Source: Eledone cirrhosa
Lineage: Eukaryota
Direction of reading: 5' to 3'
DNA: 64,000 nt
Assembly: GCA_964016885.1 (NCBI GenBank)
Contig: OZ024741.1
Location: 347,882,001 to 347,946,000 of the forward strand
Positions 4,700-56,082 of this stretch are shown here, piece by piece. Both the position numbers and the translations under genes were made by a program. The notes under the pieces are model-generated. The model searched no databases, was not told the DNA's origin, and saw only the letters and a program-made list of their open reading frames with translations. Numbering within the stretch: position 1 is the stretch's first letter; every line of letters starts with the position of its first letter.

Positions 4700-6560
4700 G
4701 GTATATTATCTCTTTCTCTTAATTTCGAGTATAATTTTTTGACCGGTCACCTTCCTGGTGGCAAGGTTGTAAAAGAAAAGAAATTGTCATCCCTTGAATC
4801 GCAAGAATGTTTTGTAAATTTTGAAGGTGCCAGCTATCGCAGCCATTTTTAGACTATGAATTAGGGAGCTGCGTTCTTTGTTCGCAAATTCAAGTTCAGT
4901 CATACTTTGGTCCAAACGGGTTGGTATATAACCCGTTGCTCCAATAATGATGGGTATGAAGCTAAAGGTGTATCTTGGATACTGGATTTGTAAACTCCTC
5001 ATCAATGGTCCGTAGCTATTCTCCTTCTCCTGTATTTTTCTGACAACGTTTACATCAAGTGGGCAGCTGATCTCCACAACAGAACACGTTTTCAATGTGT
5101 GGTCCCAAACAACAATATCAGGCCGGTTGTGCTTTAATTTGGTGGCAGTGTTTATTTTCAGGTTCCACCAGTATTCCTTAGTGCCATCTGTCTCAATATA
5201 TTCTTCCTCGTTTGTTGATAATTTTGTTTTCCGAAGTGCGTTCCAGATGGTTCTAACTATCCCATCGTGTCTCATGAGGAGGTAGTAGCGAGATGACATT
5301 CTTTCGCAGCTGGCAACAATGTAGCTTACATCCTAGATCTTTGTTTTACATAGCCTACATTTATTGTCAGCTGCTGGCCCTCCCCTTTTGTGCAGCAGAT
5401 ATTTGGTAGGGAGTTCTTGTTCCTGTATTGCATAGAGATATCCCTCAAGGTGTGATGTCATAAACGTGTGGAACTCCATGCCAGGCTTTTTGAGTGGTTT
5501 ATCCTCTCTATGGTCTGTGTTTTACGTCTCAAGTATCCATGCACAACTTTTTCTGTAAATTGGTCAATTTTTTCATCATGTTTGAACATTGAATAGGATC
5601 TTCCGATTTCTCTGGGTGAGAGACTTATATCAGGCTTTATTCCATATCTCTCCTCCAGATCAGTCGCTATTCTAATGATTCTTTTTTTTCATGCTCATAA
5701 ACCTGAACAAGATGGTAGCCAACCTTTTTCCTCTGTTGAAGGTGTTGCTTTAGTGTTACTATCCGGGTCTCATATGATGTTAATATGGATTTTAGACTCC
5801 GGCCACCTTCCTTGCGTGAGAAGTATAGCCTATCCACATCACCATTGATGTTAAAGTTCCCTGTAACACTGAGAAGTTTGCGAGTTCTACCATCCATCTC
5901 ACTTAGTTCTTGCAATGACCAGTTCAGCAGGCCAAATGTTGGCTTTAGAATTGGCACAGCATAAGTATTGTGGGCAATGTATTTGTTGTATGCTAACAGT
6001 TCTGATGACCATATTTTCTTTACTCTTCTCAGGTATTCAGTTCTGGTTCTCTCCTTATTTAAGGGCCCATCATATCTGACATCCTAATCCTGTCTAAAAT
6101 ATCTGTAGTTGTCACCTGACTGTAGAGGTTGTATTATCAGGCCGTTCATCTCTAGATTTCTAGAGGAGGGCACAGCTATTCCACGTTTTACTGCCAAATA
6201 TGCACACATGGACTCACAACATTTCATGTTGATGTCTGTTGAAAATTGTGTAATGAGGTCCAATTGTTTGTTAATATCATAGATATTTGGTCCATTCAGC
6301 TTCAGGTCATCAACAAAGAAAAGATAGGAGATACTTCTGGACCCGCTTCTTTGTCCACCTTGTTTCCTGAGTAGGTAAGATAGTGGATTTAATGAGAGAA
6401 CGAAGATAGCACTGACAAGCTATCACCCTGAAAGATGCCCTTCTGGTAATGTGTCTTATCAGTCTTAACTTGCTCCTTCTCACCTCTAAGGATCAAATTG
6501 GTGTACCAGTTCTTGGTCAGACGTTCAACAGCAGCTACAGTGGTTGTGGAACTTTGGCTA
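4700..6560 (-). mobile_element. 5'-truncated R4/Dong-like (RLE-type) non-LTR retrotransposon, decayed
   Basis: Minus strand carries KGIFQGDSLS (~6415-6442), SISYLFFVDDLKL (~6300-6335), ILKPTFG...DVDRLYFSRKEGGRSL (ORF 5667..5957) and a CRLC zinc-knuckle remnant (~5310-5362). ORF 4787..5299 has RHD...RPDIVV...VVEISCP...KENSY, a restriction-like endonuclease. Stops and frameshifts are present. Confidence 0.9.
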
Positions 6561-7014: not shown

Positions 7015-7370
7015 TATCAATTCAAAATATTAACAAAATAGATATTCTTCTGATCAATTATATTTTGTTTAAGATAGTAGATGGTTAAGATTCAGTCATG
7101 GTAGTGACTACCATGATTGAATCTTAACCATCTACTATGTCAGGGTATGTCATGTATCATTTTATTTTATCTGATGAGGACGTACTTTTAAACCTAACTC
7201 AGTACCTTTGAAATATGTATAATAAAATATAATTGATCACAAGAATATCTATTTTGTTAATATTTTGAATTAATATTAAAAACTCTGGAAAACCTCGCTG
7301 TTGAGTGCTTCCAATCTATTGTAAAACTTATTATTTGATGTATTCATTGAACCTTGTTTAACTTTTAAAT
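7015..7370 (+). mobile_element. TA-flanked fold-back mini-element (PLE pLTR-like)
   Basis: Outer arms at ~7018-7068 and 7224-7273, plus an inner near-perfect palindrome at ~7075-7138. A hammerhead lies on the right side and (TA)n flanks both ends. Confidence 0.8.
7163..7229 (+). ncRNA. minimal type I hammerhead ribozyme
   Basis: tattttat-CTGATGA-ggacgtac...gtaccttt-GAAA-tatgta-TA-ataaaata. Stem I is 8 bp and stem III is short and quasi-palindromic. Predicted cut after 7221. Confidence 0.75.
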
Positions 7371-7415
7371 ATATATATATATACATACATACATATATAT
7401 ATATACATATATATA

Positions 7416-7458
<43 letters not shown>

Positions 7459-7467
7459 AAGTGTGTC

Positions 7468-7538
7468 CTCATCAGTGGCCTTCCAACCGTCGTAGGCATT
7501 TCGTCGCATTAAAGGCCATATACCTCAGGTTGGTGCGA
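7468..7538 (-). ncRNA. non-circularly permuted hammerhead candidate, copy 1 (core intact)
   Basis: Minus strand reads tcgca-ccaacc-TGA-ggta-TA-tggcctt-taa-tgcga-c-GAAA-tgcc-TACGAC-ggttgg-aaggcca-CTGATGA-g. Confidence 0.75.
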
Positions 7539-8367
7539 GCAACGGCTAAAAAAAGTCGTTGGGACACGTAAATAAGGGGGACGCTAGGGTAAACAAACAA
7601 AATGGTTTAAGCAACAGAAAGTGATGAAGAAGAAACAAGTCACAGATTTCTATGAATATAAATTCGGTGGAATCGTGAACGAGAGAATAAAGACCATAAA
7701 ACCTGGTTGAAATGTGAGCAAGGAAGGAATTTCGCACAGGTCTAACGGGAGGAAGAAGGGGCCTGGTCTGCGAATTCGGTAAACATAAGTTCTGTGAAGT
7801 CGCAGACGAGAGAGAGAGTAACAAAATTCATACCGGCTTGGCCACGTGCCCGCGAGAAAAGGATTATCATATTTACACATATATTTTTTCCTCCGCTGCC
7901 ACCAGTCTGTTTCGTTCTTTGTGTGTTTACCCTTTCTAGCAGTCTCTCTCTCTCTCTGTTAGCCTCTTCCTCACCTTTCACTCACTCACTCTCTGTCACT
8001 ACCTCTCCTCCTCCCCTTTCTTCCCGTTTGACCTGTCCGTAATCCTTTTCTCGAGGGCACGTGGCCAAGCCGGTATGAATTTTTTTCCTCTCTCTCTCGT
8101 CTGCGACTTCACAGAACATATGTTTACCGAATTCGGAGACCAGACCCCTTCTTCCTCCCGTTAGACCTGTGCGAAATTCCTTCCTTTCTCACATTTCAAC
8201 CAGGTTTGATTGTCTTTATTCTCTCGTTCACGATTCCACCGAATTTATATTCATAGAAATCTGGGACTTGTTTCTTCTTCATCACTTTCAGTTGCTTACA
8301 CCATGTTGTTTGTTTACCGTAGCGTCCCCCTTATTTACGTGTCCCAACGACTTTTTTTAGCCGTTGC

Positions 8368-8438
8368 TCGCACCAACCTGAGGTATATGGCCTTTAATGC
8401 GACGCAATGCCTACGACGGTTGGAAGGCCACTGATGAG
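8368..8438 (+). ncRNA. non-circularly permuted hammerhead candidate, copy 2 (GAAA changed to GCAA)
   Basis: Same as copy 1 but with GCAA at 8404-8407, so probably impaired. Confidence 0.65.
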
Positions 8439-8447
8439 GACAAACTT

Positions 8448-8495
<48 letters not shown>

Positions 8496-8717
8496 CTCCC
8501 GTTTGGCTTGTGTGGGTCTCTTCTTGCTCACATCTCACACACATCAACACGGTCTGTACCTCTCTCGCACATGAAATCCACCCAGCTTATGCTGACCGGA
8601 CAATCATGTTGCTTGTTTATTTTCCTATCTTCGGTTTGCTTTTGTCCTTCTATGTTGTTTACTTGTCCCACTCGCCTTACGCGAATTCTGGTGCCAATAA
8701 CTTATTTTAGTTATTGC

Positions 8718-8788
8718 TCGCACCAACCTGAGGTATCTGATTTTTAATGCGATGAAATACCAATGATGGTTGGAAAATCACTGACGAA
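8718..8788 (+). ncRNA. non-circularly permuted hammerhead candidate, copy 3
   Basis: tcgca-ccaacc-TGA-ggta-TC-tgatttt-taa-tgcga-t-GAAA-tacc-AATGAT-ggttgg-aaaatca-CTGACGA-a. Predicted cut after C8737. Confidence 0.75.
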
Positions 8789-9243
8789 GGACTATTTTTA
8801 TCATATGTAACCCATGTGCAAACCACGCAGTATTCTTCTTTCTTCTCATGTGTTTTTATATATATTTACCTCGGCTGCGTTTGTCTGTTTCTCTCTTACT
8901 GCTTCGCCGCTCTCTCTGTTTCTCTCACCTTGTTTCGCCCTCTGTCAGTTACACTTTCTCTCGACTGACCTCTTCCTCACACTTCCAATCACTCACTATC
9001 TGTTTCTGCCCTTCTCCCTTCCTCCCGTTTGGCTTGTGTGGGTCTCTTCTTCCTCACCTCTCACACAACTCAACACGGTCTGTACCCCTCTCGCTCATGA
9101 AATCCATCCAGATTATGCTGACCGGACAATCATGTTGCTTGTTTATTTTCCTATCTTCGGTTTGCTTTTATCCTTCTATGTTGTTTACTTGTCCCCCTCG
9201 CCTTACGCGAATTCTAGTCCCAATAACTGTTTTTATTTATTGC

Positions 9244-9314
9244 TCGCACCAACCTGAGGTATCTGATTTTTAATGCGATGAAATACCAATGATGGTTGGA
9301 AAATCACTGACGAA
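9244..9314 (+). ncRNA. non-circularly permuted hammerhead candidate, copy 4
   Basis: Motif identical to copy 3. Predicted cut after C9263. Confidence 0.75.
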
Positions 9315-9373
9315 AGACTATTTTTATCATATGTAACCCATGTGCAAACCACGCAGTATTCTTCTTTCTTCTC

Positions 9374-9441
<68 letters not shown>

Positions 9442-11211: not shown

Positions 11212-11395
11212 CATACTCGATACATAGCAGAGTATAAATATTTAATATAGAAATGGCTTCTACATGACTAGAACTGTGTCCTTCGAGAGAAATCATCAGG
11301 AAGCCCCGAGGAAGGGCTTCCTGAGGATTTCCTGAGGATTTCTTCCGAATGAAACAATTCTAGTATTGTAGAAGGCATTTCTATATTAAATATAC
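11212..11395. mobile_element. fold-back pLTR fragment with two outward-facing degenerate hammerheads
   Basis: The + arm reads ggcttc-CTGAGGA-tttc(11-nt duplication)..gaat-GAAA-caa..ttg-TA-gaaggc. The - arm reads ggcttc-CTGATGA-tttc..gaag-GACA-cag..atg-TA-gaagcc. Same family as the 36850-36900 HHR. Confidence 0.8.
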
Positions 11396-22462: not shown

Positions 22463-22980
22463 ATCTGTTGGTCGTTTACCGACACCTGAGTACGCGGGTA
22501 GGAGCACTGAACGAACTACGCAGGTTGGTTTGTTTACTCCGGACTAATGTAAAATAATATGCGTAAGTCAAACATATTAAAGTTTGCTTCGTTTATTCTA
22601 ATTCGCTGCAATATATATTTCAGTGACAGCCATTATTGGCTCTGACCTCATCAGGCAGTACGAAATAATGTAGAAAAAACAGGTAAACCTGGTGTTGTAA
22701 TGTGTTCTACCCTGTTAATTCATCGATATGACCAGCTACTGGGTGTATTGTTAGTCCTCAAAGGAACTGGAATGATATGTTTCCAGTTCCTTTGCTGGAC
22801 ATATCGATGAATTAACAGGTTAGAACGCATTACAACACAATGTTTACCTGTTTTTTCTGCATTAATTCTTACTGCCTGATGAGGTCACAGCCAATAATGG
22901 CTGTCCCTGAAATATATATAGTAGCGAATTAGACTAAACGAAGCAAACTTTAACATGTCCTAATTACACATATTAATATA
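22460..22980. mobile_element. fold-back mini-element with two outward hammerheads (22605-22660 minus, 22871-22925 plus)
   Basis: Arms at ~22555-22736 and 22793-22977, with central hairpin aaaggaactggaa..ttccagttccttt. The + HHR reads ctgc-CTGATGA-ggtcacagcc-aataat-ggctgtccct-GAAA-tatata-TA-gtag. Confidence 0.85.
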
Positions 22981-23291: not shown

Positions 23292-23419
23292 AAAAGAGCT
23301 CAGCCGTCGGGATCCTGACTCTTTTCCTATTACCTACTCTACTACCATAAGTATCAAGTACCCTGGTCCGTTATGGTCCACCTTATCTTATCACACCCTC
23401 TTTGTCTTTGTTATATATT

Positions 23420-23492
<73 letters not shown>

Positions 23493-23945
23493 CAAAGACA
23501 AAGAGGGTGTGTAAGATAAGGTGGACCATAACGGACCAGGGTACTTAATACTTATGGTAGTAGAGTACCAGGATAAACATTTTCATTTAGTCCAGAATTA
23601 GCTGTCAAAACGACTTGAGCTCAGCCGTCGGGGTCCTACTCGTTCATAATACCCACTCTACTACCCTAAGCATTGAGTACTTTGGTGCGTTATAGTCCAT
23701 CTGGTTCCTTACCACATTTCCTTCGTTATATATATATATATATATAAAACGAAGGAAGTGTGGTAAGGAACCTGGTGGATCATAACGCACCAGAGTACTC
23801 GATACTTTGGGTAGTAGTGTGGGTAATAGGACAAGATTCAGGACCACGACGGCAGAGCTCAAGCCGTTTCGACGGTTATTTCTGAGTCCAGAAATACCCG
23901 TCGAAACGGCTTGAGTTCTGCCATCGGGGTCCTGAACCTTTTCCT
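23288..23945. mobile_element. cluster of four half-hammerhead-family arms separated by (TA)n
   Basis: Segments 23288-23412, 23490-23728 and 23746-23945 share gagctcagccgTCggg..tacccactctactacc..ttatggtcca in alternating orientation. Confidence 0.8.
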
Positions 23946-32594: not shown

Positions 32595-32645
32595 AGCTTC
32601 TACAGGACTAGTACTGTTTCATTCAGATGAAATCTTCAGGAAGCT
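32595..32645 (-). ncRNA. type I hammerhead in the 3' pLTR of PLE A
   Basis: agcttc-CTGAAGA-tttcatctgaat-GAAA-cag-tactagtc-ctg-TA-gaagct. Confidence 0.8.
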
Positions 32646-44042: not shown

Positions 44043-44428
44043 ATGCAGAGGTTATATTTAATTTGTTGGGATTCAACAAGCATAAACATTGTATAACTGA
44101 TATAAAGCGCTTTCATCAGATAAAATACAGATTTGTTTTATAAATAAATATTGACATACCCGGAAAAAAGACAACCTTAACGGTTGAAGTCCCCGGGTAA
44201 GTCAATATTTATTTATAAAACAAATCCGTATTTTATCTGATGAAAGCGCACCATAATGTGCCTTGGTTGTCCTTGAAATATATACAATAAAATAATTATG
44301 GTTTTATAACTATAGTTTCCATTTATTAATATATTGAATATTTACTCCACTATCTGCTGAGTGCTTTATATCAGTTATACATTGTTTAAGCTTGTTGAAT
44401 CCCAACAAATTAAATATAACCTCTGCAT
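44043..44428. mobile_element. two-tier fold-back mini-element with hammerhead 44229-44294(+)
   Basis: Outer arms 44043-44108 / 44362-44428 and inner arms 44106-44164 / 44192-44249. The HHR reads tattttat-CTGATGA-aag...ctt-GAAA-tatata-CA-ataaaata, with U16.1 changed to C. Confidence 0.85.
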
Positions 44429-56011: not shown

Positions 56012-56082
56012 TATTTTATCTGATGAAAACACAAATGTTATTACATGATGATATTTGTTTTTGAAATGCGCATAATAAAATA
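56012..56082 (+). ncRNA. minimal type I hammerhead (right arm)
   Basis: tattttat-CTGATGA-aaacacaaatgttatt-acat-gatgatatttgttttt-GAAA-tgcgca-TA-ataaaata. Stem I is a perfect 8 bp, stem II is long and stem III is palindromic (dimer-type). Predicted cut after 56074. Confidence 0.85.

Follow-up and report, generated by a model that had tools for sequence, protein, structure and literature searches.

An S-G-C hammerhead motif with a likely split stem II in a high-copy, retrozyme-like repeat of Eledone cirrhosa

Introduction

Around position 8718 of a 64,000-nt stretch of the Eledone cirrhosa genome (contig OZ024741.1, assembly GCA_964016885.1; hereafter the window) lie the conserved residues of a predicted hammerhead ribozyme without a continuous stem II behind the CUGANGA core, and the question arises which helix, if any, takes its place. 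A sequence-only reading had answered that stem II is reduced to the single pair 10.1-11.1, upon which a pseudoknot between the leader UCGCA and the linker UGCGA is stacked as a surrogate, the whole forming a compact fold of about 70 nt.

In the account of Eckert et al. (2023), CUGANGA and the paired bases adjacent to it must be contiguous, the search patterns require CUGAUGA(U)G with 2-6 further pairs directly after it, and in the SGC alignment stem II has its 5' strand, and the I-II helix one of its strands, 3' of CUGANGA (PMC10085705). Non-LTR retrozymes are described as tandem non-coding units with one hammerhead each (PMC7229834), and a preprint derives them from the pseudo-LTRs of Penelope-like elements using type I models only (bioRxiv 10.64898/2026.07.22.740005). 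Eight Naiad retrotransposons were flagged as ‘HHR_half_core’ by Craig et al. (2021), who noted only half cores, and inverted and tandem insertion into (TA)n has been described for Penelope-like elements including Naiads (PMC8557442).

Layout of the motif and its copies

The coordinates and letters on which the sequence-only reading was built agree with the window. Positions 8718-8757 read UCGCA CCAACC UGA GGUA UC UGAUUUU UAA UGCGA U GAAA (UGCGA at 8748-8752, U11.1 at 8753), followed 3' of 8757 by UACC AAUGAU GGUUGG AAAAUCA CUGACGA A GGACU. From 5' to 3' the cleavage block S, the GAAA block G and the CUGANGA block C occupy 8732-8744, 8748-8761 and 8774-8788, stem III being GGUA-U with A-UACC and stem I being UGAUUUU with AAAAUCA (Table 1). 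From hammerhead numbering, the predicted cleavage site would fall between 8737 and 8738. The whole motif measures about 102 nt (8691-8792), and sequencing read depth peaks over 8710-8802 in three of four runs.

Table 1. Positions of the motif, its parts and its host units in the window
Feature	Position	Strand	Remarks
Inverted pair of A-type units	7413-8493		7413-7866 and 8040-8493, 96% alike, between (TA)n runs
Intact A-type copy	7463-7565	-	G10.1-C11.1
A-type copy, probably inactive	8341-8442	+	GCAA replaces GAAA at 8404-8407; its inverted twin is intact
Tandem B-type units	8493-9393	+	Partial 8493-8868, full 8869-9393, ending in (TA)n
Closing helix P0, 5' arm	8691-8694	+	GUCC in the family, GUGC in the 8718 copy; partner 8789-8792
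Hairpin P, CAAUAAC-loop-GUUAUUG	8695-8716	+	94.6% of cells paired; changes on both sides in 5/7 pairs
Leader UCGC(A)	8718-8722	+	Likely distal 5' strand of stem II; fifth base often unpaired
CCAACC, strand of I-II helix	8723-8728	+	6/6 pairs change on both sides; 4 of the ten best blind mutual-information pairs
Block S	8732-8744	+	Stem III 3' strand GGUA, U16.1 (8736), C17 (8737), stem I 3' strand
Block G	8748-8761	+	Stem II 3' strand (U)GCGA, 8748-8752; U11.1 (8753); GAAA (8754-8757); stem III 5' strand UACC
GGUUGG, partner strand of I-II helix	8768-8773	+	From mutual-information ranking and covariation
Block C, first part	8774-8788	+	Stem I 5' strand, CUGACGA (8781-8787), A10.1 (8788)
GGAC, P0 3' arm	8789-8792	+	From alignment and pairing counts
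Second B-type copy	9217-9318	+	526 nt downstream; tail AGAC, one hairpin mismatch

Four copies were found in the window (8368, 8718 and 9244 on the forward strand, 7538 on the reverse strand). The pair 10.1-11.1 is A-U in the two B copies and G-C in the two A copies. Both pentamers, as had been claimed, are present in all four, but these copies amount to two pairs of near-identical repeats (94.9% and 96.3% alike). A standard CUGANGA...GAAA scan of the window missed all four, and no hammerhead family appeared among the best 150 of 186 rows of the Rfam scan of the window (E up to 1). At window composition a given pentamer occurs by chance somewhere in 35 nt with p ~0.017, so the window alone is weak evidence for a helix between leader and linker; the support comes from the genome-wide and cross-species comparison.

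The genome-wide family and a seven-helix model

When the genome of E. cirrhosa (3.0 Gb) was searched with a core pattern that puts no constraint on the leader, the I-II helix or stem I, 12,414 matches were obtained, as against 0 in the control. The 159 loci taken for the main family were deliberately enriched for divergent subfamilies; of 161 parsed contexts 115 were kept, the other 46 being truncated, rearranged, too degenerate or chance matches, and 28 further copies, chosen for a mutated partner strand, were left out of the count set, which holds 87 copies. In a metagenome pattern scan, stems I and III were present in none of the 49 matches, and these were rejected as chance occurrences.

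Tested on 48 copies, a seven-helix model paired 88.3% of cells. Shuffling gave 77.8%, with none of 500 shuffles reaching the observed value, and sliding the model gave no more than 44.8%. Changes on both sides occur in 25 of the 35 model pairs, a count that kinship of the sequences inflates. The MAFFT alignment put a few ACGC leaders wrongly and cannot capture the displacement of P0 by one base that some subfamilies have. In a blind ranking of 4186 column pairs by mutual information, a pair of stem I came first and the I-II helix held ranks 2, 4, 6 and 10; the best ranks of the hairpin, P0 and the first leader pair were 12, 19 and 23, and that of 10.1-11.1 only 122. Nested folding, which cannot represent crossing helices, gave competing folds for two of the three copies folded.

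Hammerhead features

CUGANGA, GAAA and U16.1-H17 are all present in the 8718 copy, at 8781-8787, 8754-8757 and 8736-8737. Throughout the 48 rows A15.1-U16.1 reads U-A (U16.1 being required by the parser) and H17 is C or A. CUGANGA, GAAA, U16.1 and H17 persist even in subfamilies that have diverged at most positions of the helices, which is in part by construction, the search patterns having included core letters. Pairing reaches 86.9% of cells in stem I and 93.8% in stem III, where 6/7 and 2/5 pairs, respectively, have changed on both sides, and the tertiary contact of stems I and II is present as a covarying six-pair helix.

A continuous stem II starting right after CUGANGA is missing in all 87 copies. 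The contiguous run of pairs between the 3' tail and the bases before GAAA measures 0, 1 or 2 in 14, 61 and 12 copies and never three, by which a canonical stem II formed with that tail is ruled out and the single pair of the sequence-only reading is borne out. The blocks stand in the type-SGC order, but block C is interrupted, the 5' strand of stem II and one I-II strand lying 5' of block S. Nor is the order C-S-G of type CSG present, only the second half of block C preceding S, and the type I hammerhead of non-LTR retrozymes is replaced by the order S-G-C. As judged from these features the motif likely works like a hammerhead, yet it lacks a contiguous stem II and so is no plain member of type SGC or CSG.

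The leader helix and stem II

Pairs 1 to 5 between leader and linker form in 78, 80, 81, 82 and 54 of the 87 copies, and both pentamers are exact in 21/87, in a sample enriched for divergent subfamilies; the invariance claimed for them is an effect of the small sample in the window. The first pair is U-A (UCGC/GCGA) in 12,217 matches genome-wide and A-U (ACGC/GCGU) in 578, as against mismatches of U.U (UCGC/GCGU) in 157 and A.A (ACGC/GCGA) in 88. Most of the U.U matches belong to one subfamily with C11.1 and those with A.A are scattered; on the tree the switch amounts to about one event, the leader strand having changed twice. No covariation of CGC/GCG is seen within the main family (mutual-information ranks 645, 2053 and 2530 of 4186). 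Of 282 matches in which the partner strand has another second base, the 100 listed look like scattered single mutations and not like a compensated subfamily. The fifth pair fails in 33/87 copies, as A.A, C.C, U.U or C.A in several subfamilies, and both A-U and U-A are found at it in the ACGC branch. The leader helix would consequently consist of four pairs and an optional fifth.

Thirteen old relatives (loci L163-L175) were recovered with the patterns GGYRUC-GAAA and AG-CUGANGA (control 0) and are degenerate. A matching leader lies 30-31 nt upstream in four of them (ACAUC, ACGCC, ACACC, ACGCC); it is missing in the other nine, and the mean profile has no peak at that offset. The thirteen are possibly remnants of Naiad 3' ends. 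The covariation that had been looked for in distant members is found in the first-pair switch and in a Naiad leader (see below), not in CGC/GCG within the main family nor in nine of the thirteen old relatives. Uncompensated changes, which the sequence-only reading had named as evidence against its pseudoknot, do occur: the fifth pair shows them, and so does the first pair of one subfamily.

The base following the core pairs with 11.1 in 73/87 copies (A-U 22, U-A 20, G-U 18, G-C 12, U-G 1), as compared with only 21/87 for the base 5' of the leader; in 14/87 the pair 10.1-11.1 is mismatched, with the exceptions clustered in the ACGC branch (G.A, A.A). From these comparisons the leader helix likely continues stem II beyond 10.1-11.1. 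It should be called the distal part of stem II, four pairs long, in preference to a surrogate pseudoknot, because one core pair and four leader pairs together give the five-pair stem II of the published SGC and CSG forms. Of the earlier proposal the helix itself is retained, backed by the genome-wide compensation at its first pair and by a compensated Naiad leader read by eye, and its designation is changed.

The closing helix, the hairpin and a four-way junction

It had been noted that the ggac/agac following the core finds no match, which is correct as regards UGCGA; GGAC has its partner elsewhere, in a GUCC that precedes the leader by about 25 nt. This closing helix, P0, has at least four contiguous pairs in 69/87 copies and fewer than four in 18/87, and neither B copy of the window has it intact. 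Its arms vary across the family as GUCC/GGAC, AUCC/GGAU, UUCC/GGAA and UCCC/GGGA, those of the hairpin as CAAUAAC/GUUAUUG, CAACGAC/GCCGUUG, CGAUAAC/GUUAUCG and UAAUAAC/GUUAUUA; both helices covary, and they adjoin 10.1 and the leader with 0-2 unpaired bases. Where G directly follows the core it may pair with C11.1 or start P0, and in the subfamilies concerned 20/87 copies fit P0 better from that base. The compact fold of about 70 nt, in which P0 and the hairpin at 8695-8716 had been overlooked, is hence too short.

It could still be argued that the 70-nt RNA from UCGCA to 10.1 is the whole ribozyme and that P0 and the hairpin serve the shape of the circle or recognition by a reverse transcriptase. 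The stretch 8718-8788 contains stems I and III as well as the leader and I-II helices, P0 is defective in the copies just mentioned, and a one-pair stem II is known in natural hammerheads (PMC3088659). We regard this as unlikely, since the two outer helices covary directly beside 10.1 and the leader and, as read by eye, recur in Naiad_Ovul with an identical hairpin loop, and since without P0 base 10.1 would be a free 3' end held by one pair.

Quite improbable, too, is an arrangement in which P0 stacks under A9-G12 as stem II, with UCGC/GCGA as a sequence motif or secondary helix. GGAC does follow the core like the 5' strand of an ordinary stem II, with at most one base between as in the extra U of HRIMA-1 (PMC10085705), CGC/GCG is invariant in the main family, and 10.1-11.1 is mismatched in the 14 copies given above. 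However, G12 is covalently continuous with GCGA and not with GUCC, the post-core base tracks 11.1 through four pair types, and the leader covaries with its partner.

It is considered probable, on comparison of the sequences, that the locus carries an S-G-C hammerhead motif with predicted self-cleavage after 8737, the stem II of which likely consists of two parts, the core pair 10.1-11.1 and the four pairs of the leader (UCGC/GCGA), connected via a predicted four-way junction with P0 and the hairpin. The comparison itself shows the residues of the core, the helices (stems I and III, the I-II contact, the hairpin and P0) and the pair switches at 10.1-11.1 and at the first leader pair. The junction would lie inside stem II and be formed by 10.1-11.1, P0, the hairpin and the leader helix with 0-2 unpaired bases. 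Because the strand GCGA-N11.1 contains no unpaired base, the leader helix is expected to stack on 10.1-11.1, rebuilding the five-pair stem II of the SGC and CSG forms, and P0 would stack on the hairpin. The core would cleave after H17, which is the usual hammerhead chemistry.

The split form, SGC and CSG could be regarded as one common ring of strands that differs in its opening point: here all three linkers of the SGC/CSG ring would be closed and the chain would open inside the 5' strand of stem II. Within a circle or a tandem transcript, the molecule could be viewed as a type-SGC ribozyme into which the unit body has been inserted behind 10.1, P0 closing off the insert.

Comparison with published hammerheads

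The type-SGC hammerhead HRIMA-1 shares with the present motif the order S-G-C, the short linker from stem I to stem II, a stem II of five pairs, a single spacer base and an I-II helix adjoining stem I (PMC10085705). It differs in that the 5' strand of stem II and the I-II partner here lie 5' of block S, and in that here a single post-core base is followed by the closing helix. Type SGC has been published in that paper from metatranscriptomes only, whereas the motif described here sits in a high-copy animal repeat. Type CSG, represented by two metagenome sequences in Eckert et al. (2023), is alike in the cyclic order of strands, the five-pair stem II, the six-pair stem I and the 2-3 nt that join the I-II strand to block S, and CSG-1 also in its UUAAU linker. 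Type CSG opens between block G and the I-II helix; here a 6-nt linker is found at that place and the opening is inside stem II.

Hammerheads with a short stem II of one or two pairs also form their I-II contact as a base-paired pseudoknot, but they are circular permutations with a simple capped stem II, among which no branched junction was seen in the text of Perreault et al. (2011; PMC3088659) as consulted. The literature search, in which subscription journals are poorly covered, found no split stem II, no non-circular hammerhead of an animal repeat and no comparable Naiad ribozyme.

The host element

The motif is carried by a non-coding tandem or inverted repeat that ends in (TA)n and appears, from its sequence organisation, retrozyme-like. 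The predicted cleavage sites of the B copies lie 526 nt apart, and spacings of ~470-740 nt recur in the match lists; upstream homology ends within ~950 nt, where it runs into the previous unit. No ORF shared among the copies of the repeat was seen, and a microsatellite follows the core within 100 nt in 118 of 166 contexts. With its non-coding tandem units, each with one predicted ribozyme, the repeat resembles the non-LTR retrozymes, the hammerheads of which are nevertheless type I, in units of 150-450 bp (PMC7229834), instead of a non-circular permutation in units of ~470-740 nt. It shares with the Naiads the insertion bias towards (TA)n and the tandem and inverted copies. A Naiad-like reverse transcriptase motif was found neither in the window nor in loci L001-L175, and no Naiad ORF, for which GIY-YIG at the N-terminus and reverse transcriptase at the C-terminus are characteristic, lay beside the fetched copies.

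Transcripts of tandem units would be cut once per unit into monomers of ~470-740 nt, the ends of which would stay held in the fold and be joined into circles, with the unit body looped out and P0 closing the loop. Copying of the circles into (TA)n runs would then fall to the reverse transcriptase and endonuclease of a Penelope-like element, likely one of the Naiad clade. It might alternatively be supposed that the fold has lost the ability to cleave and survives from a Naiad 3' end solely because retrotransposition recognises it: Naiads spread without canonical hammerheads and have left remnants in cephalopods (Craig et al., PMC8557442), and GAAA is broken in one of the four window copies. This is highly improbable in view of the core residues retained by divergent subfamilies (in part by construction of the search patterns) and of the head-to-tail units with one motif each, which fit a cycle of cleavage and circularisation.

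Naiad retrotransposons

The Naiads flagged as ‘HHR_half_core’ and the repeat of the window are alike in their (TA)n targets, their tandem and inverted insertions and, in a reading by eye, the split layout of the Naiad_Ovul 3' UTR; they differ in that the window element is non-coding and in that the leader of Naiad_Ovul would supply the partner of 11.1. Read by eye in the consensus file of Craig et al., the octopus elements Naiad_Ovul and the entry preceding it (Naiad_Obim by table order) show this layout some 70 nt short of the end; their hairpin loop is UUAUUUUA and their 6-nt linker AGUGAU or AAUGAU, and layout, hairpin loop and linker appear alike to those of the window. Their leader is ACACC against GGUGU, with three of five pairs changed on both sides. 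In Naiad_Ovul the predicted partner of C11.1 is the G that precedes the leader and not the U that follows the core.

Naiad_Esco, also by eye, reads S-UAA-G-C with an imperfect leader. The 3' UTRs of Naiad_Parc, Naiad-3_Nbra, Naiad_Hpol and Naiad_Smim (assigned by table order) read by eye as complete type-CSG hammerheads; these four come from nematodes and a spider (File S5, PMC8557442). Six of the eight flagged families thus read by eye as non-circular permutations, the remaining two being Naiad-3_Dst and Naiad-4_Dst.

We lean, with some reserve, towards a broader reading in which the split form is a fourth opening of the non-circular hammerhead: all three inter-block linkers would be closed, the chain would open inside stem II, and a four-way junction would offer 11.1 two alternative partners, the post-core base and the leader. 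This form would be the working ribozyme of a retrozyme of more than 12,000 copies and of cephalopod Naiads, and the ‘missing’ hammerheads of nematode and spider Naiads would be of type CSG; non-circular permutations would thus be common in animal genomes, and the split form would be a descendant of CSG, produced by rotation inside a tandem repeat or a circle.

If so, the assumption behind the scheme of six hammerhead permutations, namely that block C is uninterrupted, would be broken, and it would be understood why pattern and Rfam searches miss such predicted ribozymes. Non-circular permutations, placed so far in rare environmental contigs, would gain a seat in a major animal repeat, and the apparent want of hammerheads in Naiads would receive a testable answer. 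CSG in nematode and spider Naiads and the split form in cephalopod Naiads and here would offer a natural series for the evolution of permutations. The predicted four-way junction, one pair away from the active core, could also be a new place for grafting sensors or cargo.

Other elements in the window and at the sampled loci

A broken non-LTR retroelement with reverse transcriptase and PD-(D/E)xK-like endonuclease motifs lies at 4787-6560 on the reverse strand; it gave no Pfam match, and we take it to resemble the R4/Dong group. Relatives of it occur near the ribozyme repeat in L098, L099 and L108. A link between the repeat and this RLE-type fragment is not supported, the two being mostly separated by microsatellites and their orientation varying.

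A family of Penelope-like elements with C-terminal GIY-YIG and an ordinary hammerhead of its own was met at L103 (1290-1330), L026 (1-1100) and L142 (3406-6961). In L103 the end of a truncated GIY-YIG element is joined to the ribozyme repeat via a fold-back, which may record template switching. A link of the repeat with such elements is likewise not supported: microsatellites mostly lie between, the orientation is varied, and the family in L026 has its own ordinary hammerhead.

Long inverted repeats round (TA)n at 23333-23569 and 23656-23820, with weak matches to microRNA families below gathering scores, are probably small inverted-repeat elements. A repeated motif CUGA(A/G)GA...GAAUGAAA without hammerhead stems occurs at 11321 and 36856 (forward strand) and at 32639 (reverse strand). 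Finally, seven CUGANGA...GAAA motifs of ordinary order are present in the window, at 7171-7213, 22876-22912, 44237-44278 and 56020-56066 on the forward strand and at 54775-54730, 41999-41958 and 22654-22618 on the reverse strand. They are followed by a short palindrome (for example TATATA or TGCGCA), four of them have an eight-pair stem I, and they are presumably minimal type I hammerheads of Penelope-like elements.
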